The translations under genes and the position numbers were made by a program. From Candidatus Omnitrophota bacterium (lineage in GTDB: Bacteria; Omnitrophota; Gorgyraeia; DAOVKU01), in contig DAOVKU010000002.1 in assembly GCA_030631665.1 (NCBI GenBank), positions 1 to 37,195 on the forward strand: DNA of 37,195 nt, read 5' to 3'. Below, piece after piece: positions 4,806 through 36,700 of this stretch; position 1 is the first letter of the stretch, and the number at the start of each line of letters is the position of its first letter. Under the pieces are notes generated by a model. The model ran no database searches. It had not been told where the DNA came from and saw nothing but the letters and a program-made list of their open reading frames with translations.

Positions 4806-6515
4806 ATGAAGGAAATAAAACATAAACTCATCGGACAGATTTTAAAAGAACAAGGTTTAATTAGCCAGAAGCAATTAGACCAGGCGCTTGCAGAACAGAA
4901 AGTGGCCGAAAAACCCCTGGGCAGGGTTTTGGTTGATATGGATTTTATTACAGAGCAGGACCTTCTCAAGGTGCTTGGTATACAGACCGGCATGAAAGTA
5001 ATAGATATTAAAAATAAGGATATTCCCAAGGAAGCGGTAGAAAAAGTTTCTGCTTCCATAGCTAAGATTTATAATGTTATGCCTGTTAGTTTTGAAGGCA
5101 ATACTTTGACTGTTGCTGTTTCCGATCCGCTTAATATAAACATACTGGATGATTTGATATTTATGCTTGGGGTTAATGTCAAAGGCGTTATTGCCAGCGA
5201 AAAAGATATTCAGGAAAAAACTAACAAATATTATGCAGGTAAAGGTGACTCTATTGGTGAAATAGTGGACGAAATTGAGACCAAAATACCGCAGATTACC
5301 ACAGCAGTTAAAGGCAAGGACGCTAGCAGTCTCCAGGAATTAGCCAGTCAGGCCCCGGTGGTAAAATTGCTTAACCTGGTGCTCTTGCAGGCCATAAAAG
5401 ATAAGGCCAGTGATATCCACTTTGAACCATTCGAGGATGTCTTTAAGATTAGATACAGGGTGGATGGGATTTTATATGAAATTACTCATCCGCCAAAATC
5501 GTTGAGTCTGGCTGTTAGTTCCAGGATAAAGGTTATGGCAAATCTTGATATTGCTGAAACAAGATTGCCCCAGGATGGTCGCATTATGATGAATATCGCC
5601 GGCCATAGTGTTGATTTGCGTGTTTCGACCTTACCGACTGTTTTTGGAGAAAGCGTGGTTATGAGGGTTCTTGACAGGAGCGTGGTTAGTTTGTCAATTG
5701 ATGAAATTGGTATGCTTGATGATACAAAAAAGAGATTGCTTAGCCTAATTAGTAAACCCAATGGGATTATTCTGTCAACCGGCCCCACCGGATGCGGCAA
5801 AACCACCACCCTTTATTCCTGCCTGAGGATTATTAATAAAATAGATTATACAATTATTACCACCGAAGACCCTGTTGAATATGATATTCCGGGTATTATT
5901 CAGGTGAACATAAAACCGAAGATAAATCTAACCTTTGCTACCTGCCTGCGTCATATCCTGCGACAGGACCCGGACATTATTATGGTGGGCGAAATTAGAG
6001 ACCCGGAGACAGCACAGATAAGTATTCAAGCCTCTTTAACCGGACATCTTGTTTTTTCTACTTTACATACCAATGACGCTCCCGGTTCTATTACCAGGTT
6101 GATAGATATGGGAGTCGAACCTTTTTTAATAACCTCTACCCTGGAAGCTGTAATTGCCCAGAGACTTGTCAGAACCATTTGTCCGGATTGCAAAACAGAA
6201 TACACGCCTGACGAAAAAGAATTATCTCAACTTGACCTGACACCCAGGGACGTAGAGGGTAAGAAATTTTATTACGGTAAAGGTTGTAAGAAATGCAACG
6301 GCATTGGCTGTCGAGGCAGGACCGGAATATTTGAAATCTTGATGATAGACGATAATATAAGACCTATTATTATTGAGCGTTCTTCAACAGCCGCCATAAG
6401 AGAAGCGGCTCGAGAAGGAGGAATGAGAACTTTAAGAGAAGACGGACTTGCTAAAATCTATGATGGGATAACGACTATTGCAGAAGTAATTAGAGAAACA
6501 CAGGGATACGCATAA
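4806..6515 (+). CDS. pilB: PilB/GspE-family hexameric assembly ATPase, copy 2
   Basis: 569 aa. T2SSE_N/MshEN-like N-terminus, GPTGCGKTTT, DIIMVGEIRD, TGHLVFSTLHTND, CPDC...CKKC. It is a clear but divergent paralog of 1997..3706. Confidence 0.9.
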   Translation: MKEIKHKLIGQILKEQGLISQKQLDQALAEQKVAEKPLGRVLVDMDFITEQDLLKVLGIQTGMKVIDIKNKDIPKEAVEKVSASIAKIYNVMPVSFEGNTLTVAVSDPLNINILDDLIFMLGVNVKGVIASEKDIQEKTNKYYAGKGDSIGEIVDEIETKIPQITTAVKGKDASSLQELASQAPVVKLLNLVLLQAIKDKASDIHFEPFEDVFKIRYRVDGILYEITHPPKSLSLAVSSRIKVMANLDIAETRLPQDGRIMMNIAGHSVDLRVSTLPTVFGESVVMRVLDRSVVSLSIDEIGMLDDTKKRLLSLISKPNGIILSTGPTGCGKTTTLYSCLRIINKIDYTIITTEDPVEYDIPGIIQVNIKPKINLTFATCLRHILRQDPDIIMVGEIRDPETAQISIQASLTGHLVFSTLHTNDAPGSITRLIDMGVEPFLITSTLEAVIAQRLVRTICPDCKTEYTPDEKELSQLDLTPRDVEGKKFYYGKGCKKCNGIGCRGRTGIFEILMIDDNIRPIIIERSSTAAIREAAREGGMRTLREDGLAKIYDGITTIAEVIRETQGYA

Positions 6516-6582: not shown

Positions 6583-7860
6583 ATGTTAGTTTTTCAGTAT
6601 CGGGCAGTGGATAAGACAGGAGGAAAAAAAGAGGGCACGATTGAAGCTAAAGATGCAACTGATGCCGTAAATCGTATCAAGAATCTTGGTTATTATCCTA
6701 CGCATATAACAGAAAGCAAAAAACCGATTAGAAAAGAGCGTGAAGAAAAAAGAACTACTGGTAGAAAGAAAAAATCTGCACTCACAGGTTACCTGAAAAT
6801 TCCTTTTTTAGGAATTGGCACGGTAAAGAGCAAAGAAGTAGTTCTTTTTACCAGACAACTATCTACCTTAATAGATGCAGATTTACCACTTGTTAGAAGT
6901 CTGATTGTGCTTAGAGATCAGTTAAAACCCTGTGCTATGAAGGATGTAATCACTCAGCTGGCAAAGGATGTTGAGTCAGGCAGTACCCTTTCTGAATCCA
7001 TGTCTCGCTTTCCGCGTGTTTTTTCCAAACTTTACTTGAATATGATCAGGGCCGGTGAGGTAGGCGGTGTTTTGGAAGTTGTTCTTGAAAGATTAGCAGA
7101 TTTTAGCGAGAAGTCCCAGCGCCTGGCTAGCCGTATTCGTTCAGCCCTGGCTTATCCCGCCTTCGTGGTATTAATTGCACTTTCGGTTTTGGCGTTTTTG
7201 ATAACTTTTATCGTGCCCCGTTTTATGGAAATATTTACCGAACTTGGAAGCGAGCTGCCGGTTTTAACGATGATGCTTTTGAATTTGAGTTCTTTATTCA
7301 AAAGCAAATGGTATATTGGTATAGGCATAATAGTAGGTTTGGTTTTAGGTTTTAAATTACTTTATCGAAACCAGAAAGCAAAAATTTTTGTAGATAATTT
7401 TAAATTAAAAGTACCTGTTGTCGGCCTCTTGATTCGCAAAGTTTCCGTGGCGCGATTTACCCGCACACTGGGCACTTTAATTTCAAGCGGTGTGCCCATC
7501 TTACAAGCTTTAAACATTACCAGAGATACTGCAGGTAATGAAGTTATCGCCCGGGCCATTATGAGAGTCCACGATTCTATAAAAGAAGGTGAGTCCATTG
7601 CAAAGCCTCTTCAGGCCAGCGGAGTTTTTCCGCTCATGGTTGTTAATATGATAGATGTAGGAGAGGAAACAGGTTCTCTTGATAACATGCTGATTAAAAT
7701 AGCCGATACTTACGATGAAGAAATTGACACCACCGTCAGCGCCTTAACGTCTTTACTTGAACCTCTGTTAATAGTCTTTATGGGTGTTATTGTCGGTTTT
7801 ATTGTGGTGGCTATGTTCCTACCCCTGGTAAGTCTAATGGGCGCCTTAGGCGCAGGTTAA
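6583..7860 (+). CDS. pilC: PilC/GspF-family inner-membrane platform protein
   Basis: 425 aa with two T2SSF-type repeats and three hydrophobic segments. Typical motifs: FTRQLSTLIDADLPLVRSL and FTRTLGTLISSGVPILQAL. RBS GAGAGGA lies upstream. Confidence 0.9.
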   Translation: MLVFQYRAVDKTGGKKEGTIEAKDATDAVNRIKNLGYYPTHITESKKPIRKEREEKRTTGRKKKSALTGYLKIPFLGIGTVKSKEVVLFTRQLSTLIDADLPLVRSLIVLRDQLKPCAMKDVITQLAKDVESGSTLSESMSRFPRVFSKLYLNMIRAGEVGGVLEVVLERLADFSEKSQRLASRIRSALAYPAFVVLIALSVLAFLITFIVPRFMEIFTELGSELPVLTMMLLNLSSLFKSKWYIGIGIIVGLVLGFKLLYRNQKAKIFVDNFKLKVPVVGLLIRKVSVARFTRTLGTLISSGVPILQALNITRDTAGNEVIARAIMRVHDSIKEGESIAKPLQASGVFPLMVVNMIDVGEETGSLDNMLIKIADTYDEEIDTTVSALTSLLEPLLIVFMGVIVGFIVVAMFLPLVSLMGALGAG

Positions 7861-7987: not shown

Positions 7988-10900
7988 TTGAGAAAAAAAA
8001 TTATTTTTTTAATAGTCTTAATTCTCGGCTGTTTGAATATTACAGGCCTCATTGGAGCCCAAGATCAGGAGACTTATCTCTATGTTCTTAACCCACAGGA
8101 ACCCAACTTAAAAACGTGGCCTACCGGTTGGGGCAATGAACCGGATGAAGTTTCTGCCAGGATTTCTGATGGAAATGTGGTTGTTAGAGGCATTCGGGAA
8201 GAGCAGAGTTTCGGGGCGCTTCATAAAAATATATGTGTTGATTTTGAAAAGTACTCCTATCTTGAAATTGAAGTTAGCCGGGCTGCCAACTGTTGGTATA
8301 TAATTTTTAGTGGTCCTGAATTTGAAAATGGTTTTATAAGAATTCAGAAAGACACCGAAAAAACAGGAAAATTTAAATACAACCTCTGGAATTATCCCCA
8401 GCTCAGGAACAAAATGGAATTTGATATTCAAATTGGAGTGAGCGCTCCCGGGAAAAGCGGACAGAAAGATGTGGAAATGGTTTTCGGAAACCTGCGTTTT
8501 GTTGATACAGGGCGCCGGCGTCCTTTAAAAGGACCGAAATTGATTAGGCGCAATTTACCCCAGCCTATACTGAATGCCAATTACGATTTACCCAAGCCGC
8601 AGATTTCCAGAATTGTTTTTCTATCTTCACACAAGCAGGCTCCAGGGAAAGATTTTTATAAACCTAAGAAAAATATTTTTGAGATTTTCGCAAGACGCGA
8701 ATTGCCTGTTGAAACTCCAATTTCCAGACCGGTTTTTAATGATACAGGCAAAGAAACAATAAGCATTGAAAGCGATTGTTATAAGCTTATTTTCAGCAAG
8801 AAAAATGGCGCATTTCTGGGCATTAAAGATAAAGTAAAAAATGAAATTATATCTGTAGGTTCTGTGGATGGAATTTTATGGCGTCTTAATTTTCATAAAA
8901 GAAAAAGCATAAGCAATAAAGATTTTGATTCTGATTCAAAAGAGAGGCCTTTTAAATATAAATGGAAAAAGTCAAAAAAGCAGCTTTTGTTTTCTTATGA
9001 AGATAAAACCACAGATTTTAAGTTTACAATAACTATTTGCGCCTCAAAGGAAAACTATATAGATTTTAAGACAGAGATTAAAAATACCTACGAGCAGCCC
9101 ATTATTTTAGTTAATTTTCCCAAAGGGCTTACTTTTAAACTTGAGAAATTGAAACGTTTTATTTATCCTTTCCGAGGCGGTCTGGCTTTTAAGCCAGGTT
9201 TTTTTTTAGAAAGGCGTTATATATCTGAGTCACAATATCTTTTTAGCGATTATATAGCAGTAGAATTTGAGAATAGCAATTTATCTTTATATACCATACA
9301 AAATCCCAAGTGCTGGACACAGGCTACCATGAGCGCTGGCTATGATTCATATCAGGGAGGAGCGGGGTTTTATACTTATGCCCAGGCGACCTACATTAAA
9401 AGTAGTTCACGCTGGCGCAGCCCTGTCATTAGGATGCGCATTGGAGAGCCAACGGAAGAAAGCATACAGCATTATATAGAAGATAACGCCCTGAATAAAA
9501 TACCCGATCTTAATAAAAGAATTAGTAAGGATTTATTTTATAAATTATCTAAATCGGTTTTATTAAAATTTGACTTTGTCTGGATAGGTCAAAGTTTTAA
9601 AGAGGTGAAAGAGTTTATTGAAAAATTACCTTCGCCTACCCTTATTCACCCGGTAACTTTCTGGGACAAGGGATTCGATAAAAATTATCCTGATTACCTG
9701 CCGCCCAATGAAGATTTTGGAAGCCAGGAAGATTTAAGAGAGTTGGTTGAAGCAGCACGTGAATTGGGTGATTTGGTAATGCCCTATACCAACCCTACCT
9801 GGTGGAATGAAAGCGTAACTTTAGAAAAACTGGGAAAAGAAAATATTGCTGTTATAAAACTCGATGGCCAGATTCACGGTGAGTGCTACTGGGGAGTAAA
9901 CTGGGGCATAATTACCAGCCCCCATCATCCGCAGGTTATCAAGAGAACCCAGCAGACCGTCCGTGAATTTAAATATGACATACCTTGTGATATCCTTTTT
10001 GAAGACCAGCTGGGCTCCAGACCCTGGCAGTATGATTTAAATCCAAGAGCGAGGGGAGTAAATTTTTATAAACAGGGTTTGATAGATTTTGCTCGAAGGG
10101 ATTCGAAGCAAATCCCTGTTATGTGCGAAGGCGGATTTGACGGGTTGATGCCATACGTGATTGCTTTTTCTGATTTATCGGTTAACAATGCTCTTCCGCC
10201 GGATGAGACTTTTAATAGTTGGTATGGCAAAGGTAACTGGGAAGTATTTCCCTATGCTTTATATGTAGCGCATAATAAAAATGGTTTTTATCAGCACAAT
10301 CTTGCACATGAAGTTTTTACTAATTCAAAAGAACAGCTTACCTGGAATATGGCCTATGGGCATAATTTAAATCAGGGTTATTGGCCGGCTGCCTGGGAGA
10401 AAGAGCAGAAAAAATGGTTCTATATTGATGATGCCTTCCAGAAAGCTGTGGCCTGCCGTTTCTTTGGGAAGAAATTAACTGATTTTCAAAGGATGGGCAA
10501 GGAGATTACTTTTAGCCGTTTTGAAGACATAGGTATAGTTGCGAACCATTCCAAAGTCACGCCATATGAGATAGAAGGTTTTCTCTTACCGCCGGGCGGT
10601 TTTCTCGCCAAATCACAAGATGACAGTTTAGTAGCCGGTATATTCGATGTTTTTAATCACGACCTTTTAGCTGATGAGCACTTTATTATTGTAGAGAAAG
10701 AACCGGACAAAATCATAGTCAAGCAACCCGATGCAAAGAAGACTTTAATCAGTCTTAAGCGGCCGGACGCCTGGGATATGGCTGATAGGATTAATGTAAT
10801 TTGTGGGGGCCAACAGGTGCCGACGGCTGTGTCTGAAGACAAAATAACTTTCCTTTATGATTCTGCAGAAATTAATAGTAAGTATATATTAAATTATGAT

Positions 10901-13900
10901 CCTTTAATAGATGATATAGAGCTGATTATTAAGCCTGAAAAAAATTATGTAAGGCCGCAAGAAAAAGTTAAGGTTTCTGTCATTGCTAAAAACCTAAGCA
11001 TTATGCCTATTAAAGAAGGGAAATTGGCTTTGAGCGCCTGGTTGGTTCATTCCGATGGGCCTGTTCCCGGTATGTGGGGAGGATATTCGCAGGACAAAGC
11101 CGACATTACCCAGGTAAGTGAGATTTTTAAAGCCATAGACATAGATTCTCAGGTTTTGGCTGATTTTAATATTGTTATTCCCGAAAAGGCAGGAGAGGGG
11201 GATATAATTTGGCTTAAAGGTGAAATAATATATACCCAGGATTCCATAAGAAAGATGAAGCAGATTCAGAATAAAGTAAACGTAATATCTCAACCAATAA
11301 AAATTCAAATTAGACCAAAAGAAATTATTATCTATCCTGAAGTTAAAGAGCAACTTGAAATCAAAATAAAAAACAATCAGGCTAAAACCCTGAAGGGAAA
11401 TATTGAATTAGATACCGATTTACCTGCAGGTATTCTGGAAAAAGAAAGCATTTCTTTTTATCTTAAGCCATTGGAAGAAAAAACCATTTTTGTAGGCGTG
11501 CGGGTTCCTGCTTCCGAAGTAGATGAAGATTATCAATTAATTGCTAAGGTTAAATTAGATGGGAGAATGTATTCTTCAAGCACATGTTTGATTAAAGTCA
11601 GCTTGGGGATGCCGGAGATAGGCCTTGGGCCGCAAAATGTTTTGTTTTTAAGCAGGAAGCAGCCCCTTAATGTTACCGTCCAAGCTCATGGGGGGCTGCC
11701 GCTTAAAGGGTGGTTGAATATTGAAGTGCCGGAAGGGTGGCAGATAATGCCTGAGAAGCAGGAAGTAAATCTATTGGCCGGCAAACATAAGAAGTTTGAT
11801 TTTACCATAAAGCCCACTTCGAAAATCGATACAAATATAATTGCAAAAATATCGACAGATGAAACTGAGATAAAACGCCAAGAGGCCTTTAAAGTCATAG
11901 GTGAGAGAGGAGAGGCGGTTTTAATTGAAGCAGATATAAATCAGGATGGTTATACAGATTTTGTGCTTGCCAACAAACTAGTGGAAGTTCACGTAACTGA
12001 GGCCATTGGCGGCAGAATTTTATCCTTCTTTCTTAAAGAAGATGCCCATAATCAGCTTTACAATGCCTATTGGCAACTGCCGAAAACTAAAGAGGCAAAG
12101 GCGTGGATTGAATACGGTGGAATAAATGACTGGTTTCCCAAAGAGTGGCCGGGCGAGGTCTGGGCAAATACCTGGGAATATGAAATAAAACAAAAAGGGC
12201 CGAAGGAAGTATCACTAAAGATGTGGACGCAGACACCTGATAAATTATATCTTGAAAGGACCATGACCTTAAAAGCCGGTTCCCCGGTTTTAAATGTAAA
12301 ATATAAAGTTAAAAATAACTCATCCTCAAAGCAGGAGTTTGCGTGGGCCAATCATCCTGATTTGGCGCCGGGCCCCCGCGATGCTACCGAGAAACACCAG
12401 ATTGTAATTCCCACCAGGGACAAAGGTATGATAATTCAGGATTACAAAAGAAGTATTAGTAAAAACGAATATATCCCCTCTGAGAATTGGATTCTTGCCC
12501 ATGATGGAGCCAGTGATGAATATTTCCTGCAGGAATTTGATAGGAAATTGGTTGATAAAATAGGTGTATGGGAGGGTGTTGGGTTTTACACTATGGAATT
12601 AGTTTTTAAACCAAAGACTTTGAACCCTCAGGAAGAATTTACATTTGATATAAAATATAGTGCGGGAAAAGAGAAATTAGAAAATCTCAAATCAGGCCCG
12701 CTCGCAGTCAAAATGCCTTATCCCCCGGTTGAAGAGAAAAAATATGTTTTTGCTCATTATATGACCTGGTTTGGGACGCCGGAAGTGAGCAATAGTTGGT
12801 ATAATTGGGCGTGGCCCCAAAAAGCACACAAGCGCAATCCTGACAGAACATTGCCTGGAGGCCGCAGGGATATAGCTTCTTTGCATTACCCTTTAATTGG
12901 ACCTTATGATTCAACCGATGAAGATGTTTTGGAATATCATATTTTATTGGCAAAAGCGGCCGGGATAAACGGTTTTGTGGTTAATTGGTATAATTTTGAA
13001 GATAAATTCGGCAAAGTCAAACATATTGACAAAGGTTTCAAAAAACTTCTTGAGGTTTCAGAGAGATTAAATTTTAAAGTCTGTGTTGACATAGATGATA
13101 AATGCATGTTTCCTCCTTATACCTACGGTTCCACCAGAGAGCAAGCAATAAATGAGGCAAAGAAAGCAGTTAGAAGGATATTTAGAGAGTATGGCAGGAG
13201 TGAGGCCTATTTTAGAATTAATGGGCGTCTGGTAATTACAAACTTTGGTTGGGGACCGCCTTTGTTCTCAGGCGAAGGAGCCGTCTCTTTTTCACCGCAG
13301 GAATGGAAAGAGATTATGAATTCCGTAAAAGAATTCCAGCCTTTATTTATTGCTGACCATCAGTGGCATTGGGGAAAAGGCATTGGGGAAACAGGTTTTC
13401 TGGAGGTTGCTGATAGTATTTATCCATGGGTTTCAGGTGGCCCCCAGCCCAGAATAGAATTTTATGAGCAGTCAAAGCAAGCATTAGCCGAAGGTCAAAT
13501 TGAGTTTATTAGCGGAGAAGCATGTCCCGGGTTTGATAGTTATGGCACCTGGGGTTGGGGCGGCGGCCGGACTATTATTCCCAGAGATGAAGGAGAGGTC
13601 TACAAGACAACCTGGGATGAATGCCTGAAGTATGATGTTAAATGGATTCAGATTATAACCTGGAACGATTTTGCAGAAGGGTCAACCATAGAGCCGACCC
13701 TTGAATATGGATATAAATACTTAGAAATAACAGCTGATTATGCGTTTGGATTAAATAACAAAAAACCAAACTATTACGCCCTCAAAATTCCTAAAGAAAT
13801 CTATGATATAAAAAGTCAAATAAAAGAGTTAAGTGAAAATGAAAAAATTAACCTTGACCTTCTCAATTTATATAAGAGAGATTGCAAAGAAGCGGTAGCT

Positions 13901-15454
13901 TTATTTGTAAATGGTAATTATAAAAAGGCAAGTCAAATCGTTAATAACTTGAAACAAAAAGTTAAACGAGAGAAAATAAAAATTCCAGAAATTAAAGAAA
14001 CCGAATTATTGCTTAAACCACAAGAAGCAACTATTTTTGCAGGAGAAACGCAGAATTTTTTTGTTCTTATCAGGAATGAGTCTGATGAATTCCTGAAGGG
14101 CAAACTTAATATTGATAGCGATGGCGATATACCCGCAAATTGGTTAAGTAAAAATACAGTGGATATTGATTTAAGAGCTGGCGAAGAAATAAAAATTCCT
14201 TTTCAGATTAATGTTTCACAAAAAGCAAAAAAGAGAAAAGCGATGATAGAAGCGAAATTAGAAACGGGAGAAAAATTAATACGCTCCCATGTTTCGTTAG
14301 TTAAAATAACACCTTCTTTTTTCCATATAGATATAGGGCCGCTGAACATTTTGCGCCTGAAAAAGAAAGAGAAGATCTTGGTTCAAATTACTACCCAGCA
14401 GAAAAATTCTGATTCAGGAAATATTATATTAAATGTGCCTTCCGGATGGATAGTTAAGCCCCGCAAGGCCTCATATACTATAAAAGGCACTGGTAAAAAG
14501 AAAATTGATTTTTTCATAACCCCCACCAATACAAAAGAAGGCACTATCACAGCTATGGTAACCAGTCGCAATAAAGGAGAATTATCCGCGAGTGAGCCCT
14601 TTAAGGTCATAGAGAAGACAGATGCAGCCCTTGCAAAAGGAGATATTAATGCAGATGGCCGGATAGATTTTGTGCTGGGAAATAGTAAGGTTGAAATTCA
14701 GATTACACCGGCACTGGGAGGGCGAATATTAGCCTTTTATTTACGTCAGACAGGGAATAATCAATTATTTCTTGATTATCCCGGAGTAGAGAAGACCATA
14801 GATAGTGCTTTTGAAGGATGGATTGAGTATGGAGGAATTAACGACACTTTTCCCAGGGGCTGGCCGGGCGAGGTCTGGGCAAATACCTGGGAATATGAAA
14901 TAAAACAAAAAGGGCCGAAGGAAGTATCACTAAAGATGTGGACGCAGACACCTGATAAATTATATCTTGAAAGGACTATGACCTTAAAAGCCGGTTGCCC
15001 GGTTTTAAATGTAAAATATAAAGTTAAAAATAACTCATCCTCAAAGCAGGAGTTTGCGTGGGCCAATCATCCTGATTTGGCGCCTGGCTCATCAAAAAAG
15101 GCGCAATTGGAGGATGAAATTATAATTCCCGCCAGAAGCGGTCTTATTAAGGAGTCGTTTAGAGCCATAATGGGCAAGAGTCATCATTCTCCCAGCGAAG
15201 GCTGGTGTGTGGCTCTTAGCTCAAAAACAGGAGAGTATTTTGCGCAACAATTTGATAGAGATTTAGTGAAAAACATAGGTGTCTGGCAAGGAAAAGATTT
15301 TTTTACAGTTGAATTAATATTTAAAGAAATTTTACTTCAACCGAATGAAGAAGTAAGCTTTAACGTAAATTATCTTGCAGGTAAAGATGATTGGATGCAA
15401 GCTATAAAATATAGCGCCGAAGAAGAAAGCTCGCAGGATTTATTAAAAAGATGA
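7988..15454 (+). CDS. Giant (2488 aa) secreted/lipoprotein multi-domain glycan-active protein
   Basis: TTG start 7 nt after AAGGGG. The signal peptide has a possible lipobox (LILGC) or an SPI site (LIGA|QDQ). Domains by eye:
- A-type novel module, aa 28-173
- uncharacterised beta-domain plus TIM-barrel-like core, aa ~255-930
- three NEW3/CARDB-like Ig modules, aa ~975-1305
- mutarotase-like beta-sandwich, aa ~1306-1565
- GH99-like domain, aa ~1583-1925
- helical linker
- two Ig modules, aa ~2003-2208
- second mutarotase-like domain, aa ~2210-2468. Confidence 0.9.
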   Translation: MRKKIIFLIVLILGCLNITGLIGAQDQETYLYVLNPQEPNLKTWPTGWGNEPDEVSARISDGNVVVRGIREEQSFGALHKNICVDFEKYSYLEIEVSRAANCWYIIFSGPEFENGFIRIQKDTEKTGKFKYNLWNYPQLRNKMEFDIQIGVSAPGKSGQKDVEMVFGNLRFVDTGRRRPLKGPKLIRRNLPQPILNANYDLPKPQISRIVFLSSHKQAPGKDFYKPKKNIFEIFARRELPVETPISRPVFNDTGKETISIESDCYKLIFSKKNGAFLGIKDKVKNEIISVGSVDGILWRLNFHKRKSISNKDFDSDSKERPFKYKWKKSKKQLLFSYEDKTTDFKFTITICASKENYIDFKTEIKNTYEQPIILVNFPKGLTFKLEKLKRFIYPFRGGLAFKPGFFLERRYISESQYLFSDYIAVEFENSNLSLYTIQNPKCWTQATMSAGYDSYQGGAGFYTYAQATYIKSSSRWRSPVIRMRIGEPTEESIQHYIEDNALNKIPDLNKRISKDLFYKLSKSVLLKFDFVWIGQSFKEVKEFIEKLPSPTLIHPVTFWDKGFDKNYPDYLPPNEDFGSQEDLRELVEAARELGDLVMPYTNPTWWNESVTLEKLGKENIAVIKLDGQIHGECYWGVNWGIITSPHHPQVIKRTQQTVREFKYDIPCDILFEDQLGSRPWQYDLNPRARGVNFYKQGLIDFARRDSKQIPVMCEGGFDGLMPYVIAFSDLSVNNALPPDETFNSWYGKGNWEVFPYALYVAHNKNGFYQHNLAHEVFTNSKEQLTWNMAYGHNLNQGYWPAAWEKEQKKWFYIDDAFQKAVACRFFGKKLTDFQRMGKEITFSRFEDIGIVANHSKVTPYEIEGFLLPPGGFLAKSQDDSLVAGIFDVFNHDLLADEHFIIVEKEPDKIIVKQPDAKKTLISLKRPDAWDMADRINVICGGQQVPTAVSEDKITFLYDSAEINSKYILNYDPLIDDIELIIKPEKNYVRPQEKVKVSVIAKNLSIMPIKEGKLALSAWLVHSDGPVPGMWGGYSQDKADITQVSEIFKAIDIDSQVLADFNIVIPEKAGEGDIIWLKGEIIYTQDSIRKMKQIQNKVNVISQPIKIQIRPKEIIIYPEVKEQLEIKIKNNQAKTLKGNIELDTDLPAGILEKESISFYLKPLEEKTIFVGVRVPASEVDEDYQLIAKVKLDGRMYSSSTCLIKVSLGMPEIGLGPQNVLFLSRKQPLNVTVQAHGGLPLKGWLNIEVPEGWQIMPEKQEVNLLAGKHKKFDFTIKPTSKIDTNIIAKISTDETEIKRQEAFKVIGERGEAVLIEADINQDGYTDFVLANKLVEVHVTEAIGGRILSFFLKEDAHNQLYNAYWQLPKTKEAKAWIEYGGINDWFPKEWPGEVWANTWEYEIKQKGPKEVSLKMWTQTPDKLYLERTMTLKAGSPVLNVKYKVKNNSSSKQEFAWANHPDLAPGPRDATEKHQIVIPTRDKGMIIQDYKRSISKNEYIPSENWILAHDGASDEYFLQEFDRKLVDKIGVWEGVGFYTMELVFKPKTLNPQEEFTFDIKYSAGKEKLENLKSGPLAVKMPYPPVEEKKYVFAHYMTWFGTPEVSNSWYNWAWPQKAHKRNPDRTLPGGRRDIASLHYPLIGPYDSTDEDVLEYHILLAKAAGINGFVVNWYNFEDKFGKVKHIDKGFKKLLEVSERLNFKVCVDIDDKCMFPPYTYGSTREQAINEAKKAVRRIFREYGRSEAYFRINGRLVITNFGWGPPLFSGEGAVSFSPQEWKEIMNSVKEFQPLFIADHQWHWGKGIGETGFLEVADSIYPWVSGGPQPRIEFYEQSKQALAEGQIEFISGEACPGFDSYGTWGWGGGRTIIPRDEGEVYKTTWDECLKYDVKWIQIITWNDFAEGSTIEPTLEYGYKYLEITADYAFGLNNKKPNYYALKIPKEIYDIKSQIKELSENEKINLDLLNLYKRDCKEAVALFVNGNYKKASQIVNNLKQKVKREKIKIPEIKETELLLKPQEATIFAGETQNFFVLIRNESDEFLKGKLNIDSDGDIPANWLSKNTVDIDLRAGEEIKIPFQINVSQKAKKRKAMIEAKLETGEKLIRSHVSLVKITPSFFHIDIGPLNILRLKKKEKILVQITTQQKNSDSGNIILNVPSGWIVKPRKASYTIKGTGKKKIDFFITPTNTKEGTITAMVTSRNKGELSASEPFKVIEKTDAALAKGDINADGRIDFVLGNSKVEIQITPALGGRILAFYLRQTGNNQLFLDYPGVEKTIDSAFEGWIEYGGINDTFPRGWPGEVWANTWEYEIKQKGPKEVSLKMWTQTPDKLYLERTMTLKAGCPVLNVKYKVKNNSSSKQEFAWANHPDLAPGSSKKAQLEDEIIIPARSGLIKESFRAIMGKSHHSPSEGWCVALSSKTGEYFAQQFDRDLVKNIGVWQGKDFFTVELIFKEILLQPNEEVSFNVNYLAGKDDWMQAIKYSAEEESSQDLLKR
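8069..8506 (+). other. A-type ~145-aa module (N-terminus of giant protein 1)
   Basis: Colinear similarity to the whole mature parts of the small proteins at 27938..28510 and 29136..29687. Shared motifs: SFG.(L/V)HKN, (K/R)Y(S/P).(L/I).I(D/E)V.S...WY(I/L)I, TGK.KY(N/D)L, F(D/I)LQ(I/V)GV, LRF. Confidence 0.7.
8750..10777 (+). other. Uncharacterised catalytic-core-like region (beta-domain plus TIM-barrel-like), copy in giant protein 1
   Basis: Colinear with 22356..24449 and with 32476..34962. Shared blocks: YPDYLPP...DLRELVEAARELG, ITSPHHPQV, DILFEDQLGSRPWQYD, IPVMCEGGFD, FYQHNL. Confidence 0.65.
12146..12369 (+). repeat. 224-bp intragenic direct repeat, copy 1 (2 mismatches to copy 2)
   Basis: tggccgggcgaggtctgggcaaatacctgggaatatgaaataaaacaaaaagggccgaagg...gatttggcgcc recurs at 14861..15084. 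Only c/t (12263 vs 14978) and c/g (12282 vs 14997) differ. Flanking sequence is far more diverged. Confidence 0.95.
12734..13762 (+). other. GH99-like (endo-alpha-mannosidase-like; GH71-like is the alternative) domain inside giant protein 1
   Basis: HYMTWFG, DIASLHYPLIGPYDSTDEDVLEYHILLAKAAGINGFVVNWY, LNFKVCVDID and IITWNDFAEGSTIEP resemble my memory of the GH99 blocks (YYAWYG; YP.LG.YSS.D..V...H......GI....SWY; SFNEWHEGTQIE). Confidence 0.5.
14861..15084 (+). repeat. 224-bp intragenic direct repeat, copy 2
   Basis: See 12146..12369. The offset is 2715 bp, which is in frame (905 codons). Confidence 0.95.
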
Positions 15455-16467: not shown

Positions 16468-16473
16468 AGAATT

Positions 16474-16536
16474 ATGAGCACTAAAAACGTTATTTTCGAT
16501 TTAGGCGCAGTGATTGTCGAAATCGTAAGGAATTGA
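16474..16536 (+). pseudogene. 20-codon micro-ORF resembling the N-terminus of a HAD-family beta-phosphoglucomutase (possible gene relic)
   Basis: It encodes MSTKNVIFDLGAVIVEIVRN. HAD motif I is normally hhhFDLDGV(I/L). Here the nucleophile-type Asp is present, but the second Asp and the Gly are replaced (FDLGAV), and the frame stops after 20 codons. Confidence 0.25.
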
Positions 16537-16553
16537 GAAACTATTTAAAACCT

Positions 16554-21194: not shown

Positions 21195-21200
21195 AATTTT

Positions 21201-22355: not shown

Positions 22356-24449
22356 GTGAATAACACCCATTTTATAGAGAATTCTTATCTTAAGTTAGGC
22401 ATTGATAATTATGGCTCAATCACCTGCCTTTATAACAAAAAAACAGGCACCCAGTTTATAAAAAAAGATTCTGGCTCTGGCTGGAAATTGATTGTTTCCT
22501 TAAGGGGCTGGACTGAATATCCTGTCTTTGATTATATGAATCCCGGCGAGATAAGAAAGAATAAAAATAAAATTAGTGTTTCTTTCAAACACCTCACCGG
22601 CTTAGAAGGGGATTTTTTAAGTATATCCATGGATTTATATTTTAGGTTAAGGGGAGAAGATGTAATTTTAGAGGCCGGAATAAAAAATAATTCTCCAGAA
22701 GTTGTTCGGGAGGTATGGTTCCCTTTAATTTCCGGATTAACTAAAATATCTTCTTCAGAAAAAGATTCTTTTATTACCATTCCCCTGTGGATTGGTTCCA
22801 AATTTAGGAACCCAGTCAAGACCCTTCCTGAAAATTGGGTGCCCAAAGAGGGTAGTTTTTCCTGGAAGTTTCCGCTTTTGTATCCGGGCATTGCTTCCAT
22901 GAGCTGGATTGATTTCTATAATGAAAAAGAAGGGCTTTATTTTGCTTCTTACGATAAAACTTTCCAGACTACCGGCCTTGGTGCGCGCAGAAGAAAAGAG
23001 AAAGGTGATTTTCAGCTGGGTATAATAAAATATCCTTTTATTGAGCCTGGAGAGACATGGAAGTCAAAAGAATATATAATTTCAGCCCATAGAGGCGATT
23101 GGCACGCCGGTGCTAAAAAATACAGAAGATTTACAGATACCTGGATGGAGAAGATTAAAAGGCCCGACTGGATAAAACAGGCGCCCGGCCTATGTGATTT
23201 ATTTATGAAGCACCAGAATAAAAGGATTTATTTTAATTATGATAGATTGCCTTTAATTCAAAAGGAAAACTTAAAGAAAGGCCTGAATCTGCCTCTGTAT
23301 ATTTTTTCCTGGTATGGCAACGGGCATGACTCCGGCTATCCTGAATATGCGGCAGATAAGGATATGGGAGGAGAGGGGAAATTAAAAGAGGCCATAAGGG
23401 ATGTCAAAGAAAAAAAAGGCAAAGCGATACTTTATACTCAGGGACGTTTAATAGATTTTGCTACAAATTATTACAAGAACAAAGGTCATAAAGTTTGCAT
23501 TAAGAATGAAGACGGCATTTTTTATATTGATGAATACTCCTGGCCCATACAGGGCAGCATTTCGCCGCATAAGGTTTTTGCTATCGCCTGCCCCTCTACT
23601 AAAGAGTGGTCAAGACAGTTGAATAAACAGGTAGACTTGGTTATGTCTCTGGGGGCAGATGGTCTTCTTTTTGACCAGATAGGAGGGGATCATCCTTATC
23701 TTTGTTTTGACAAAACCCACCCCCACAAGAAACCGGCTATGGCCTTCGCCGGCAAAATCAAATTACTTAAAAACTTGCGTAAAAGAACCAAGAGAAAAAA
23801 TAAAAATTTCGCTATTATGGTAGAACTTGTCTGTGATTGTTTCCTGCAGTATGTTGATATGGTTCATGCCCACTGTGAAAATTTTAGGCCGGAAGGCAAT
23901 TTACTTCCCATGCCGGAACTTTACCGTTATACCTTTCCGGAACATATTCTCTCAAGCAGAGATGCTTATGAAGAAGAGGCCATTAATCAATCTTTTGTTT
24001 TGGGCTTGCGCCAGGAATACTGGCGCATGTTTGAGGCCTTTGAACACGTGGATGCCCGTTTTGAGAACGACCCCGAGCAGCTGCGGGTAAAAAATTATGT
24101 GACTAAAATGCTCAAAAGCAAGGCGCATCTAGAAAAAATATTTAAGTTAAAAAAGAAATGCCCTGAGCTTCTTATAGAAGGTATTTTTAAAGATGAAGAG
24201 GGCATAAGAGTTTCAGATAAAAAAGTAGAAGCAAAATTGTTTACTTCTAAACACGAAGAACATAAAGCAGTTGTTCTCTGGAATAAGGCGCTCATGAGAA
24301 AAAATATTAAGTTAGAAGTTAGCAGGAAAGACCATAGATATAAAGTATTGTATCCGGATAAAGAGATAAATAGAAAGACTATAAATCTAAAGCAATCTCT
24401 GAGTTTAAGCTTAGGCGCCGGAGAAATTTGTGCTGTGATAATAAGATGA
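22356..24449 (+). CDS. Cytoplasmic uncharacterised putative glycoside hydrolase/phosphorylase (TIM-barrel-like; possibly the family annotated DUF6259)
   Basis: 697 aa, no signal peptide, GTG start 8 nt after AAGGA. Colinear with the core regions of both giant proteins: YPEYAADKDMGGEGKLKEAIRDVKEKKG, IACPSTKEW, ADGLLFDQIGG, FAIMVELVCD. Confidence 0.8.
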   Translation: MNNTHFIENSYLKLGIDNYGSITCLYNKKTGTQFIKKDSGSGWKLIVSLRGWTEYPVFDYMNPGEIRKNKNKISVSFKHLTGLEGDFLSISMDLYFRLRGEDVILEAGIKNNSPEVVREVWFPLISGLTKISSSEKDSFITIPLWIGSKFRNPVKTLPENWVPKEGSFSWKFPLLYPGIASMSWIDFYNEKEGLYFASYDKTFQTTGLGARRRKEKGDFQLGIIKYPFIEPGETWKSKEYIISAHRGDWHAGAKKYRRFTDTWMEKIKRPDWIKQAPGLCDLFMKHQNKRIYFNYDRLPLIQKENLKKGLNLPLYIFSWYGNGHDSGYPEYAADKDMGGEGKLKEAIRDVKEKKGKAILYTQGRLIDFATNYYKNKGHKVCIKNEDGIFYIDEYSWPIQGSISPHKVFAIACPSTKEWSRQLNKQVDLVMSLGADGLLFDQIGGDHPYLCFDKTHPHKKPAMAFAGKIKLLKNLRKRTKRKNKNFAIMVELVCDCFLQYVDMVHAHCENFRPEGNLLPMPELYRYTFPEHILSSRDAYEEEAINQSFVLGLRQEYWRMFEAFEHVDARFENDPEQLRVKNYVTKMLKSKAHLEKIFKLKKKCPELLIEGIFKDEEGIRVSDKKVEAKLFTSKHEEHKAVVLWNKALMRKNIKLEVSRKDHRYKVLYPDKEINRKTINLKQSLSLSLGAGEICAVIIR

Positions 24450-28510: not shown

Positions 28511-28540
28511 ACTATGTATAAAAATAGAGGGCAAAAGAGT

Positions 28541-29080: not shown

Positions 29081-29135
29081 GAGGATAAGCAATACACAAA
29101 GATTTAACTAACTAATTTTAGAAAAAGGAGTTGAG

Positions 29136-29730: not shown

Positions 29731-29773
29731 TTGACAGGTTATTTTTTATCTGTTAATATTGAAGCGCTTCAAT
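29731..29773 (+). promoter_or_regulatory. Promoter plus perfect 16-bp palindromic operator upstream of the PEP-CTERM gene
   Basis: TTGACA (29731..29736), 17 nt, TAATAT (29754..29759), overlapping the palindrome ATTGAAGCGCTTCAAT (29758..29773). The ORF track's TTG 'start' at 29731 is this -35 box. Confidence 0.6.
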
Positions 29774-29823
29774 TAATAATCAAATCGTTTTTCTTTAAAA
29801 AGATAAAGATAAAGAAGAATAAG

Positions 29824-30702: not shown

Positions 30703-33700
30703 ATGAAAAAATTCCTATTACTTGGTTTAGTGGCTGGTTTTTTTGCGTTGAATCCTTTTTTGGCTCAAGCGACCGTTTGGACAGAGGATTTTAGCGATGT
30801 AAGTGATTGGTCAGCTGCCGAAGGAACCACTTTTACCAGTGATGGTTCCGCAGCTAGATTAGAGGATCTCTCTGATGGTACGGGTTGTACTACCTGGATA
30901 GGTACCAGAGTTTCCTACCAACAAGGGGATTTTGTATCTTTAACTGTAAGCGATATCGATTCTCTTCAAGGCGCCCAGTGGTATTATATAATCCATCAAT
31001 ATAATAATGCTGGGAGTTACATAGGCCAATTAGACGTTTTTCCTCCTTCGACTGATATAGGTATTTTTAATAGTTACTTAACTGCTCACCATCCCGATCT
31101 TGCTAGTTACGACCCGCAACTAAGGATTTATACTCCTGGTGGCAGTACAGGTTACGCTGAGTTTGACGATTTATCTGTTGTTCCGGCCGATGATGTAACT
31201 TTTATCACCTTTGATAATTTTGATTCTCACAAGTGGATTCCTCTTCCAGAACTTGATCCACCAAAACAACCCACCATTTCTTATTCTCCGGCTTATGCCA
31301 GTCAGGGGACGAATGCCTTGAAAGTCGAGTGTCCTGTTTGGGACCCTTTGATAGAAAATAACTTTACCGGCCTTCAAATTTCTCCCCAAATTCCGTCCAA
31401 TCCAGGTGCATCTGTATCTGAAGACTGGAGTAATATTGAAACCTTTAAAATGGAAGCTTGGTTAGAAGAGATTCCGGATGATCCCCCTGGAATGGTTTTG
31501 AGGCTCCGTAATAGTAATGGTGAGCAATGGGACAAATGGCACGTGGTTCAGATTTATAATCGCTGGAACGAACTAAGTTGGAATGTTACCGATTGTCCTT
31601 CACATATTATTAGTGATGTCGCCTACGTAGCTTTAGTGCCGGATTGGTACAACGACCAGACTTTACCTCATTTGACTTTACATTTAGATGATATGAGATT
31701 GTCTAAAAGCGATGGCTCTCAGGAATCATGGGACACTTGTGATGGACCTTCGCATGCCTGGTATGCTGATAGTAATGGCAGTCGAGCCGGATTGACTCAT
31801 AATGATGCCTATTTAACAGAAGCAGGTTCTCTATTCTTGGGATGGTTATATGGGGGCATAGATAATGTGGCTGTGGCTAATTCTGGAAGTATTGACCCGG
31901 CCCTCGATATCTACGGATGTAAGTATGTCAAGGCTAACATTAAATGTTCAAATAAAAATGTTCCTATCAGTCTATCTTTCTACGATGGAAGCGTGGAGAT
32001 TGAAACCACTACCCAGACAGTCAGCGTAGCCAATAATTGGAGCTTACTTGTCTGGGCAATTCCTTTTGATTCTACGTTTAATTATAAAAATATTCAAAGA
32101 GTAAAAGTGATAACTAATGATATTGATGTCTATACCGATGCCTACATCTATATGGATAATTTAAAATTTGGAGCAAACATTACTACACCTACCCAATTTA
32201 CTATTGTATCTGGTGATGAAAAGAATAAATTATACTGGCGCAACCCTGCCAACCCTGACTTGGTTGGCATAGAAGTTATAAGAAATACGGCCCACTATCC
32301 GACCTCAAGAACAGATGGCACCTCAATTTATAATAGCACTCTTGAAGAAAGAGAGGATTACCGTTCTTTTGAAGATGCATTATTAACTAATGGCACCACT
32401 TACTACTATAGTATTTTTGCCTATGATGCCTCTGGGGATAATGACCCAGCCCAAAATTTTGGGCGACCAAATTTCCCCATTATTATCAGTAATGATTATT
32501 ATGAAATAAGCCTATCGGCTCACAATGGCTCTATGGAATATATTAAAGACAAAACCACTCAAGAGAATATTATTATCAATTCTCCTAATAGGGCCTTGTG
32601 GGAAATTCTTTTTGATGAAAACGAAAGGCATGATGCTTCAGAGTTTTCATCTATTTCAAGCGAAAAAAACTTTTCTTATAGTACAGGAGGAAATACGCAT
32701 ACCCTGGTTTATGATTATAACGTGGATGGAGAACAATTTAGTATTGTAATAACCATAGAACAAACCGATAGCAATTACTTTGATGTGATGACTCAAATTA
32801 ATAATCACTTTGGCAAAGGTATCCAGGAGATAAAGACTAAATTTTATTTAGACCGTAGCCAGGTGAAACGCTTTTTTTATCCATACAAAGAAGGCATTTG
32901 TTACCTAAAACAGTTCTTTACGGATAAGATGAAGGCCTGGGTTAATCCTAAAGATAATAAGGCTATCTATCAGCATTTGTTTGCTGATTTTGCTGCCTTA
33001 GAGACTGATTCGGGAAGCAATATCACCTTTTATATGATACAGAGTTCTACTGAGAGATTTCAACCGACCGCCCTTATAATCGATTACGATGAATTATTTG
33101 GAGACGTCAATTATTACTATCAGCATAAGTTTTTCACCTATATTTATAATGATACTTCCTGGACAAGCCCGACTTACCGGATTAGAGTGTCTTCTCCTTT
33201 GGATACTACCGTTTATGACTATGCTGCTGATAACGCATTAGATTCGCCTGTTACTCTGGAAAGCAAAGTCAGAGATACTTATGCTTATGACCCTGACTTA
33301 TACGATAAATTAAAAAACAGTATCTTTGTTAAGACAGGGTTCTACGATATGATTGAACAGCTCAGCATTGACTCACACGATATCTTTAACTATGTTGCTA
33401 ATACCTTAATGCCGATGTTACCCTCTCCATGCATTTTGACCGTAACTCATTACTGGCTACCTTTGGATGATAGCCCTGATGCCGTAATTGAATTTACAGA
33501 AAATAACCAGCCGGATGCTCTGCCTCCGAGCCCATACTATTCTTCCGGCAATACTTACGAAAGCGCAGAACAGGAATTTCAAAATATATTTGATAAAGCT
33601 CATGAAAGAAACATTTTGGTATCACCATTTTCTAATTCTACTGTATGGAACGACTTGGACGAATATACAGATGCACAAAGAGAAGGTGTCGCCAAGCGTT

Positions 33701-36700
33701 ATTTAGACGGAGGATTTACCGTCACTGACTTTGGCCAAAAAGGAGGATATATCTCTAGTCCATGGCACCCGGATGTTAAAGTAGTTAATAGAAGGACGAT
33801 TGAAGGTATCGGCTTTTTTAACGACCCCAGCGACCCAATGTATGACCCTGGCAGTCCATACAATGAAGCAGGTTATAAAGGCTATAGAGAATATGGCGCA
33901 GATGTCTTATTTGAAGACCAGATGGCAGCCAGACCTTGGGATTATGACACAAACGATTCCGTACCTTACCTTGAGGACTATCCAACTTTGAAAGATTACA
34001 CTGCCTACGGCGAAGGAATGTTAAGGATGGCTGAGGAAGACTGCCAGCGGATGCCGATATTTACCGAAGGTTTGTGGGACAGAATGATTGACTTTATGTA
34101 TGGCTTTTGTGGTTCTATTATAGAGAAGCACTGGCACTTAGACAAAAATCACCAGAGAGACAGTAAGTATTCGCACTGGGGCCCTGAGTTTGAAAATTGG
34201 GAAATGTATCCTATGGCAAACCTATTAACACATCATAAAGTTGCTTTTTACCAACATAACCTTACTTACTGGACCTTATTCTGCAATAAAGAACCTGAAG
34301 ACAGCAATAGAAACCTGCTTACCTATGACGCTGTTTATGGATATAATTTAGGATTTGTTGTGGTAGAGCCCGTTACTGAGACCAATTTAGGCTGGTTAAG
34401 AGTTGGCGACGCTTATCAGAAGGCGCTTTTATCCAAGACCTTTGGCAAAAAGATGATTGATTTTCACAACATAAACGGAAACAACAAACACGTCCAGAGC
34501 CAGTTTGAGAGCGATTCAGGCACAATTACCATCATAGGTAACTTCTATGAGGATGTTACTTATGATATGGGAGATTATACACTTTCGCCACTTGGATTTA
34601 TAGCTACCAGTGAAAATGGAGATTTAGTTGCCGGTGTATTTTCTAATGAATTTAATAACGCCCTTCTTTCAAGCGGCGAACATTATCTAATTGTAGAAAA
34701 ATCAGCCGATGGAAACATAATAACTGTCAAGCAACCCAGAGGAACCGATACAGCTTTAATTATTGATAGGCCCAGCGATTGGATAAATGACAATGAGATT
34801 TATTTGCTCAAAGTTCTGTCTAATGGCACAGAGTTGTTAGGTGACTTTACTAATAAAACAGCAACTACACTTGAATTTGATTTTAATGTCACTGACCCTG
34901 TTAGCGGATATAGCGTCAATGGATATAAAATTTATGGCAATCAGTCTTCTTCTATAAAGCCACCTTTCTTTATATCAGTGCCACAAGCAAGAAGTGCAGG
35001 TCCGACTTCGGAGAAGATAACCTGGATGACAGATGAAGCGGCGAATAGCCTTGTAGAATACGGCACAACAATCAGTTATGGTTCAACTGTAAGCGACGCC
35101 AACTATGTAACTGACCACCAAATAATTATAACAGGTTTAACAGAAAGTCAAACTTATCATTATAGAGTTCAGTCTACAGATGTTGATGGGCATACTGCCA
35201 CTAGTGGTGATTATACTTTTGTAGTTGGTGGCACAGCCTGGCAAGAACATTTTGATCCGGCAAAATCTACCTGGGTAGAACAAGGAATTACACTAACGGA
35301 TGAACCAGGTACAACAGCCACCTTGACCGAAAGCGACCCTGTCAATAGTTATGGAAAAGCCGAATCTGAACTGATTACCTTAGATGTTGATACCTATTCT
35401 AAATTATTGGTCACCTCAACCGCTGTAGATACTGACTGTAACTATACCATCCAAATTCAAGAAGAGGGTGGTGCCTATGCTTCCAAGAACGTCATCGAAG
35501 GTATCACTCAACCCGGCACTCAAGTTGTTAATATTGCTACTGTGATGGGATGGAGCGGGGTAATGTCATTTAAGATAGGTGTTTGGGTTGATGGAGAAGG
35601 AAAAAGTGTAGTTCTGGATCTAATTGAAATAAAAGAAGCTGACAGTAATTCTCCTGTCATTACCTCAGGCCCTGGTGTCAGCCCCGGAGATACACAAGCC
35701 ACTATTATTTGGACAACGGATGAAGAAGCCGATAGTGTGGTTGAGTATGGCTTAGATGCTAATTATGGCTCTAGTGTTTCAGATACTGCCATGGTTATAG
35801 ATCACTCTCTGCAATTAACCGGCTTAACAGCCAATATTTTGTATCATTATAGAGTAAAATCCACAGATCCTTTTGGTAATACTGTCACCAGTAGTGATTA
35901 CACTTTTACTACTTTAGCTGGTGGTACAGCCTGGCAAGAACATTTTGATCCAGCAAAATCTACCTGGGCAGAACAAGGGATTACACTAACGGATGAACCA
36001 GGTACAACAGCCACCTTGACCGAAAGCGACCCGGTCAATAGCTATGGAAAATTAGAATCAGAAGTTATTACCTTAAGCTTATCTGCCTACCCTCAATTAA
36101 TTATTACTTCCACAGCTATAGATGAGAACTGTAGTTATCATATAGGCATCCAAGAAGAAGGCGGGGCTTACGCCTATAAGAATGTTCTTGAGGGCATTGC
36201 TCAACCCGGCACCAACGTAGTTGATATTGCTTCTGAAATGGGTTGGAGCGGCACCAAATCCTTTAAGATAATTATCTGGATAAATGGTGAGAGTAAATCC
36301 GCTGTCTTTGATCTTATCAGTATCGGAACTACCACAACAGCTTGGATAGAACATTTTGATCCTATCAAGCCCAGCTGGAACGAAGCAGGAGCCACCTGGA
36401 ATGATATCACCGGCACTACCGCCATACTTACAGAGAATGATCCCGTACTTAGTTATGGCAAGGTTGAGTCCGAAGTTATTACTTTAGATTTATCTACTTA
36501 TCCTCAATTAGTAGTTTCCACAACCTCAATAGATACTAACTGTAGTTATAATATAGGAATCCAGGAAGAAGGCGGGGCTTATGTTTATAAAAATGTATTG
36601 GAAGGCGTTTCTCAGCCTGGCAGTAATGTAGTAGACCTTGCAGCTGAAATGGGTTGGAGCGGACTAAAATCATTTAAGATAGTTGTTTGGGTAAACGGTG

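Follow-up and report, generated by a model that had tools for sequence, protein, structure and literature searches.

The enzymes closest in structure to the module analysed here are two glycoside hydrolases (GH) of the GH129 type. One is ZgGH129, also called DagB (ZGAL_3152), an alpha-1,3-(3,6-anhydro)-D-galactosidase of Zobellia galactanivorans that acts on carrageenan oligosaccharides and is encoded in a sulfatase-rich locus. The other is NagBb, the GH129 alpha-N-acetylgalactosaminidase of Bifidobacterium bifidum, an enzyme of the mucin Tn antigen. DagB is exo-acting, has a TIM barrel preceded by a distorted beta-sandwich and followed by an immunoglobulin-like (Ig-like) domain, and depends on Glu517 and on Asp486, the equivalent of Asp435 in NagBb (PMC5698469). 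We analysed a stretch of 37,195 nucleotides from a Candidatus Omnitrophota bacterium (contig DAOVKU010000002.1, hereafter the window) that carries three copies of a related module. Two lie in giant proteins of 2,488 and at least 2,164 residues (giant-1 and giant-2), and the third is a protein of 697 residues. The three are diverged members of one superfamily, Pfam DUF6259 (PF19773), and we consider it likely that they act as retaining alpha-glycosidases and form a relay from the cell surface to the cytoplasm.

The original prediction, made from the letters of the window, had placed one enzyme core in three colinear regions. The core of giant-1 spans residues 255-935 (8750..10792, + strand) and that of giant-2, whose loop insertions are longer than those of giant-1, residues 589-1365 (32467..34797, + strand; 580 bits with the core hidden Markov model, HMM). 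These two are easily aligned: BLASTP matches residues 258-929 of giant-1 to 593-1360 of giant-2 with 28% identity over 780 columns (E=2e-79). The 697-residue protein (22356-24449, + strand) is much more distant, with ~17% identity between the cytoplasmic and secreted copies. Its BLASTP match to giant-1 reaches only E=0.007 over ~190 residues, in an alignment that sets LFEDQ over LLFDQ and VMCEGG over IMVELV, and it has no BLASTP match to giant-2. When the HMM of each family was searched against the open reading frames (ORFs) of the window with hmmsearch, no match crossed from one family to the other. Pairwise comparison alone would wrongly argue against a three-way relation.

The relation was settled by comparing profiles, which identifies the 697-residue protein as a true homologue. 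We aligned 38 full-length homologues of this protein (alignment A1) and, separately, 44 sequences made of the two giant cores and 42 representatives (alignment A2). These representatives were drawn from 1.84 billion representative proteins searched with phmmer (E<=1e-3), in which the secreted branch comprised at least 586 clusters at 50% identity. Comparison of A2 with A1 by hhalign gave Prob 99.6% and E=3.9e-24 over 626 aligned columns, with the N-terminal strand motif at one end and the C-terminal beta-sandwich at the other, and the result was reproduced with a 75-sequence alignment. Apart from this comparison, the two families are connected only by the broader Pfam model. The three regions are homologous, and their colinearity is far beyond chance; the 697-residue protein is a remote paralogue of the giant cores. 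An HMM scan of all ORFs in the window recovered exactly three copies. The prediction thus held for the homology and placement of the regions and survived one outcome that would have counted against it, a lack of significant similarity; the core of giant-2, on the other hand, ends near residue 1360-1365 and not at 1420. All the conserved blocks it listed fall in aligned columns, including I(T/S/A)(S/C)P, LF(E)DQ, the block ending in E(G/L) and the strand motif near the N-terminus. At the YP(D/E)Y block, giant-2 has QPDA.

A check against DUF6259 had been proposed. The Pfam model covers the barrel only (300 positions) and has a gathering threshold of 28.7 bits. With 109.8 bits (E 1.8e-31) across profile positions 6-265 of 300, the 697-residue protein is a full member. 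Giant-1 also passes the threshold, at 34.2 bits as a whole protein and 36.6 bits when its core is scored by itself, with a match limited to positions 64-160; in the giants only ~100 of the 300 positions are matched. Giant-2 has no DUF6259 match at E<=0.01. Its membership is indirect, because it follows from the BLASTP similarity to giant-1 and from the family-level hhalign result; 39 of the 44 sequences in A2 match the Pfam model. Membership as such is already known: the family is catalogued in Pfam, and the closest homologue of giant-1 (73% identity) is named 'DUF6259 domain-containing protein [Candidatus Omnitrophota bacterium]' at NCBI. Our literature searches found no paper mentioning DUF6259, DUF5696 or PF19773.

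We modelled the 697-residue protein and residues 255-935 of giant-1 with AlphaFold2 from the family alignments. Both models are confident: mean predicted local distance difference test (pLDDT) 91.5 and predicted template modelling (TM) score (pTM) 0.92 for the former, 94.3 and 0.93 for the latter. Each shows a beta-rich N-terminal domain, a barrel of alternating strands and helices, and a C-terminal beta-sandwich; in giant-1 these are a beta-sandwich at residues ~255-485, a (beta/alpha)8 barrel at ~489-825 and a second beta-sandwich at ~830-915. The predicted N-terminal beta-rich domain and barrel are therefore present, in a description that had left out the C-terminal beta-sandwich.

Foldseek searches of the PDB returned the same leading structures for both models, ZgGH129 (5opq, 8rzk) and NagBb. 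The top match was ZgGH129, with E 7e-28 for the 697-residue protein and 5e-31 for the giant-1 core against 5opq, and TM-scores of 0.64-0.71 for 5opq and 8rzk with either model. NagBb (5wzn, 5wzp) gave TM-scores of 0.62-0.73 with the 697-residue protein and the highest target-normalised value, up to 0.76, with the giant-1 core. The alignments to GH129-type structures cover 650-760 columns at TM 0.62-0.76 and 12-14% identity, and the domain order is that of GH129: N-terminal beta-sandwich, (beta/alpha)8 barrel, C-terminal beta domain. Next came the galactosaminidase of Flavonifractor plautii (FpGalNase), GH36 alpha-galactosidases and GH101 endo-alpha-N-acetylgalactosaminidases. DUF6259 shares with these the overall fold group, that of retaining alpha-glycosidases whose nucleophile is an Asp on the barrel; they differ by lower TM-scores (0.4-0.66), by 8-12% identity and by other domain elaborations. 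GH101 and GH36 themselves are not close relatives (TM 0.38-0.55, 8-12% identity) and always rank below GH129-type structures by TM-score.

Sequence profiles show a weaker trace of the same relation. Against 5opq they reached E 1e-4 (A1) and 1e-6 (A2) in collinear pieces that include the N-terminal strand motif, and against NagBb E 6e-4 to 1e-3, again collinearly, through a block GW..G.DNG.PDY..GG that follows barrel strand beta2 and includes the YP(D/E)Y motif. A phmmer search of the PDB with the 697-residue protein gave no match, and no window protein matched any GH129 model of Pfam or NCBIfam. We rejected assignment to GH129 proper, since similarity at the level of the family is lacking: profile E-values lie between 1e-6 and 1e-3 over partial segments, and identity is ~14% to ZgGH129, below any family-level threshold, and 12-14% to NagBb. 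The module has a predicted GH129-like fold in the two modelled copies, and the most fitting description of DUF6259 is that of a candidate new family of glycoside hydrolases inside a known fold group. The glycosidase families matched by Foldseek are all known to be retaining, and we infer from the models that DUF6259 uses retaining alpha-glycosidase chemistry.

The original prediction had singled out two acidic residues at strand ends as a catalytic pair, and the models place them where such a pair would be expected. In the 697-residue protein, D440 (in GLLFDQIGG, 23673..23675) and E490 (in AIMVELV, 23823..23825) are the last residues of model strands 436-440 and 486-490, which are consecutive strands of the barrel and carry the acidic residues at their C-terminal ends. 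The aligned residues of giant-1 are D673 (ILFEDQLG, 10004..10006), at the end of strand beta4, and E714 (PVMCEGG, 10127..10129), at the end of beta5; the same columns hold D1072 (VLFEDQMA, 33916..33918) and E1122 (PIFTEGL, 34066..34068) in giant-2, all on the + strand. In barrels of the GH13 and GH101/GH129 types, the nucleophile is an Asp that ends beta4 and the acid/base is a Glu that ends beta5. Both positions are 96-100% conserved: in the secreted family D673 is present in 72 of 75 members and E714 in 73, and in the cytoplasmic family D440 and E490 occur in 38/38. A third conserved Asp lies four residues past the Glu (D718 in giant-1, D1126 in giant-2, D494 in the 697-residue protein), with counts of 73/75 and 38/38.

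The two candidate residues are separated by 41 residues in giant-1 and by 50 in giant-2 and in the 697-residue protein, which is similar to the spacing of Asp435 and Glu478 in NagBb (43) and unlike that in DagB (31). We located the nucleophile of ZgGH129 in LGLEADIT(D/N)ITF by comparing structure 8rzg with the D486N mutant 8rzk; judged by eye, its context resembles LGADGLLFD-QIG of the 697-residue protein (LG..AD...D). When the profiles (A2, and a barrel-only alignment, A3) were mapped onto GH129, beta2-beta3 and the terminal segments aligned, and the beta4/beta5 region did not. It is plausible, on the models, that the Asp and the Glu are a catalytic pair, and since both terminate barrel strands on the C-terminal side, they would be expected to cluster in a pocket. 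The module would then hydrolyse an axially (alpha-) linked sugar by double displacement with retention of the anomer, the beta4 Asp (D673, D1072, D440) serving as nucleophile and the beta5 Glu (E714, E1122, E490) as acid/base.

The outer and inner copies are probably not isofunctional, because they share only the ~17% identity given above and differ at an otherwise invariant position near the active site, where the giants have W606 (73/75) and the cytoplasmic family has D367, as invariant as its candidate pair. A further difference concerns C412, C450, H455 and H457 of the 697-residue protein (23589-23726), in the loops after the strand following beta3 and after beta4. In the cytoplasmic family the two Cys are invariant and the two His nearly so; the giants have Ser or no equivalent. 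These residues may form a Cys2His2 metal site that only the cytoplasmic clade has.

The copies also differ in their predicted location. Both giants start with typical signal peptides. The ORF of the 697-residue protein begins 3 nt past the preceding stop, and the protein aligns from residue 3 both to its homologues and to the first part of the beta-sandwich; as this leaves no room upstream of the aligned start, the protein lacks an export signal. The sequences thus point to two exported copies and one cytoplasmic copy, as had been proposed.

All long ORFs of the window are on the + strand, and we assigned them by searches of Pfam, NCBIfam and the PDB. The giant-1 gene (7988-15454) is followed by a GH130 phosphorylase (15451-16467), whose best solved relative is a 1,2-beta-oligomannan phosphorylase, and a GH65 phosphorylase (16533-18830), closest among solved enzymes to kojibiose phosphorylase (450 bits). 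Next are a solute-binding protein (18903-20309) and two permeases of a CUT1-type ATP-binding cassette (ABC) sugar importer (18903-22352), the gene of the 697-residue protein, a LacI-family regulator (24428-25483) and a GH94 phosphorylase of the cellobiose/chitobiose-phosphorylase type (25480-27918). This phosphorylase and ABC context has nothing in common with the locus of DagB.

Large secreted and ~690-residue cytoplasmic DUF6259 proteins recur as a pair in four other contigs (here L002, L006, L007 and P0009), and within the stretch seen a CUT1 importer is near the pair in three of the four, the exception being L002. The contig L007 (Ca. Omnitrophota, GCA_030695925.1) is syntenic with the window and encodes LacI, three small proteins, a PEP-CTERM protein, a secreted copy of 1578 residues (64% identical to residues 1-1567 of giant-1), GH130 (88%), a HAD protein, GH65 (82%), a binding protein, two permeases and a cytoplasmic copy of 691 residues (56%). 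L006 has an ABC importer, GH94, LacI and copies of 702 (cytoplasmic) and 1746 residues (secreted); L002 has GH94, LacI and copies of 681 and 1721 residues. The P0009 contig has a secreted copy of 1390 residues, a binding protein, two permeases, a cytoplasmic copy of 690 residues and small proteins. The proposed coupling of the outside and inside copies gains from this recurrence.

From gene order and recurrence we infer a relay in four steps. At the cell surface, the exported giants would act on a polymer, trimming off or releasing oligosaccharides, giant-1 doing so alongside its GH99/GH71-like domain. The products would be imported by the CUT1 ABC system, and a remaining alpha-linkage would be cleaved by the cytoplasmic paralogue. 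The resulting disaccharides would then be converted to sugar-1-phosphates by the GH65, GH130 and GH94 phosphorylases.

As for the substrate, our best guess, a weak one, is an alpha-glucan or alpha-gluco-oligosaccharide of the nigerose or kojibiose type. The neighbours weakly suggest this theme, through GH65, beta-phosphoglucomutase, GH87 and the GH71/99-like domain. GH87 (CatAgl) alpha-1,3-glucanase genes adjoin cytoplasmic homologues in three contigs, two of which (L001, L005) also have GH13 genes there; the third (L009) has an ABC importer, DUF6259, HAD, GH87/CBM4_9 and two GH65 genes. A HAD gene of the beta-phosphoglucomutase type accompanies GH65 in both L007 and L009. The GH94 and GH130 neighbours prompted us to consider a beta-glycosidase; we rejected it, since every one of the structural relatives has alpha (axial) linkages as its target.

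One may tentatively go further and see in DUF6259 a large glycoside hydrolase family, sister to GH129/GH101, and in the secreted and cytoplasmic pair a two-tier system for alpha-1,3/alpha-1,2-glucans (of the nigeran, mutan or kojio-oligosaccharide type) with which Omnitrophota harvest glycans of neighbouring or prey cells via giant surface proteins. Short alpha-gluco-oligosaccharides set free by the surface enzyme would be shortened by its cytoplasmic paralogue to nigerose or kojibiose, which GH65 would phosphorolyse. This wider scenario is possible, and we hold it with considerable doubt.

Several points weigh against a relay of retaining alpha-glycosidases. Identity to any solved enzyme is just 10-14%, and our searches found no assayed member of DUF6259 and no paper that mentions it. 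The equivalence of D440 and D673 to the GH129 nucleophile rests, in the models, on strand position and motif resemblance. Catalytic details drift within the fold group, since the acid/base of NagBb is not conserved in DagB (PMC5698469). The contexts of DUF6259 genes vary, with a TonB-dependent receptor in L003, GH3 in L010 and four tandem paralogues in L011, so that the family probably spans several specificities. Lastly, a pure alpha-glucan substrate is at odds with the neighbouring GH94 and GH130 enzymes, whose targets are beta-linkages.

Placement in the GH129/GH101 fold group and a named Asp/Glu pair turn a domain of unknown function into a testable candidate family of glycoside hydrolases. 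That secreted and cytoplasmic copies recur together, in most cases near an ABC importer and in some loci with phosphorylases, provides a concrete pathway hypothesis, and the soluble 697-residue protein should express easily. For an Omnitrophota-like organism, from a group whose giants are mostly unexplained, the analysis also suggests what part of two giant surface proteins is likely to do biochemically, and the number of clusters in the secreted branch shows that this branch is large in public data.

The original prediction assigned endo-cleavage to the surface copies, and one alternative keeps this idea: the giants would be endo-acting depolymerases and the cytoplasmic copy alone exo-acting. 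The exported giants would indeed meet a polymeric substrate, giant-2 has no other recognisable catalytic domain (Pfam) in the part seen, and the exchange of W606 for D367 near the active site separates the giants from the cytoplasmic family. However, the nearest structural relatives are exo-acting (ZgGH129, NagBb, FpGalNase) or pocket-type enzymes (NagBb, FpGalNase, GH101), and for this reason endo-cleavage by the giant cores is unsupported. Giant-1 has, moreover, its own GH99/GH71-like domain (12695..13750, + strand; Pfam GH99 4e-18, GH71 4e-14), which matches bacterial GH99 endo-alpha-mannanases in the PDB (E 2e-14). Both families are known as endo-enzymes, GH71 being the mutanase family, and this domain is a better candidate for endo-cleavage than the DUF6259 core. 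We regard endo-acting surface copies as possible and rather doubtful.

The same Asp could also pass the sugar to phosphate or to another sugar, which would make the module, and especially its cytoplasmic copy, a retaining glycoside phosphorylase or transglycosylase. The locus is unusually rich in phosphorylases (two GH94, GH65 and GH130), and retaining enzymes of both kinds are known in the related GH13 fold, such as sucrose phosphorylase and amylosucrase. Yet the close structural neighbours with a named activity are all hydrolases (galactosidase, galactosaminidase and N-acetylgalactosaminidase), no phosphate-binding signature was identified in the module, and phosphorolysis is not obviously needed by exported copies. 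This makes hydrolysis preferable and a transferase unlikely.

The secreted and cytoplasmic copies might instead be mere paralogues of the same island, acting on unrelated substrates with no passage from outside to inside. Their low mutual identity is compatible with this, as is the occurrence of cytoplasmic homologues with no secreted partner in L001, L004, L009 and L010. Against it, the pair recurs in four other contigs, the secreted partners in L002 and L006 are only ~25% identical to giant-1, and a CUT1 importer accompanies it in three. Independent functions are accordingly quite improbable, and a relay remains the preferred account of the pair. Hardly credible, finally, is the idea that the giant cores are inactive carbohydrate-binding or scaffold modules and the 697-residue protein the sole enzyme: giant surface proteins often bear degenerate enzyme-like binding domains, and giant-2 falls below the Pfam DUF6259 threshold, but both giants keep the candidate Asp and Glu, as do at least 96% of the 75 secreted-family members, and many members of the family are stand-alone secreted proteins of ~760-820 residues with no other domain to do the work.

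The remainder of the window consists of a GH94 gene with an open 5' end (1-1872), genes for two PilB-type ATPases (1997-3706 and 4806-6515), a PilT-like ATPase (3706-4800) and PilC (6583-7860) upstream of giant-1, and, after the second GH94 gene, three secreted proteins of ~185 residues each (27938-29687), a protein with a PEP-CTERM-like tail recognised by eye (29731-30396) and the giant-2 gene with an open 3' end (30703-37194). Giant proteins with glycoside hydrolases and with pilus or secretion genes on their flanks have been described as a general trait of Omnitrophota (bioRxiv 10.64898/2026.06.07.730766), a pattern that this locus fits.

Giant-1 consists of a signal peptide, a ~150-residue N-terminal domain, the GH129-like core, Ig-like and mutarotase-like cassettes and the GH99/GH71-like domain. 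Its residues 1-1567 are 64% identical to the 1578-residue secreted protein of L007, and residues 1568-2488 (~12689-15454) add the GH99/GH71-like domain and a second Ig/mutarotase-like cassette, of which residues 1990-2488 are 39% identical to residues 1095-1578 of the L007 protein. Giant-1 grew by domain insertion and cassette duplication. Its ~150-residue domain (residues ~27-180, 8066-8527) is also found in two of the small proteins (27938-28510 and 29136-29687) and at the N-termini of the secreted DUF6259 proteins of L002, L006 and L007, sometimes duplicated, with 26-39% identity. The middle small protein (28514-29080) is instead 49% identical to a small protein of L007. None of the small secreted proteins of the window has a Pfam match, and the ~150-residue domain may be a module for carbohydrate binding or anchoring that accompanies the system.

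In giant-2, residues 1-161 (30703-31185) are 50% identical to a 186-residue PEP-CTERM protein (L007:9293-9853), and the giant may have originated by fusion of a small surface protein to the DUF6259 core and further modules. Residues ~1500-2164 (~35200-37194) are made of ~137-residue modules, at least four repeats of which reach the end of the window. They start with (T)AW(Q/I/C)E(H/D)F(D/N)P.K(S/P)(T/S)W, the early ones are interleaved with FN3-like Pur_ac_phosph_N domains, and by eye they resemble the domain family of the small proteins and giant N-termini.

The four tandem DUF6259 paralogues of L011, a JGI metagenome contig (L011:4199-12510), have 702, 679, 688 and 662 residues and adjoin a CUT1 ABC importer, an aldose epimerase and a ROK kinase. 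Such an array suggests that specificity has diversified in the family.

The spacer between the GH130 and GH65 genes of the window (16468-16540) encodes MSTKNVIFDLGAVIVEIVRN*, which matches the N-terminus, MSVKGAIFDLDGVVVN..., of an intact 220-residue HAD (beta-phosphoglucomutase-like) gene at the equivalent position in L007 (L007:15747-16409). Another frame of the spacer reads GIEKLF and resembles the C-terminus (IAGIEKLFREKGKA) of the same gene. Because remnants of both ends are retained, pgmB appears to have undergone an internal deletion in the window.

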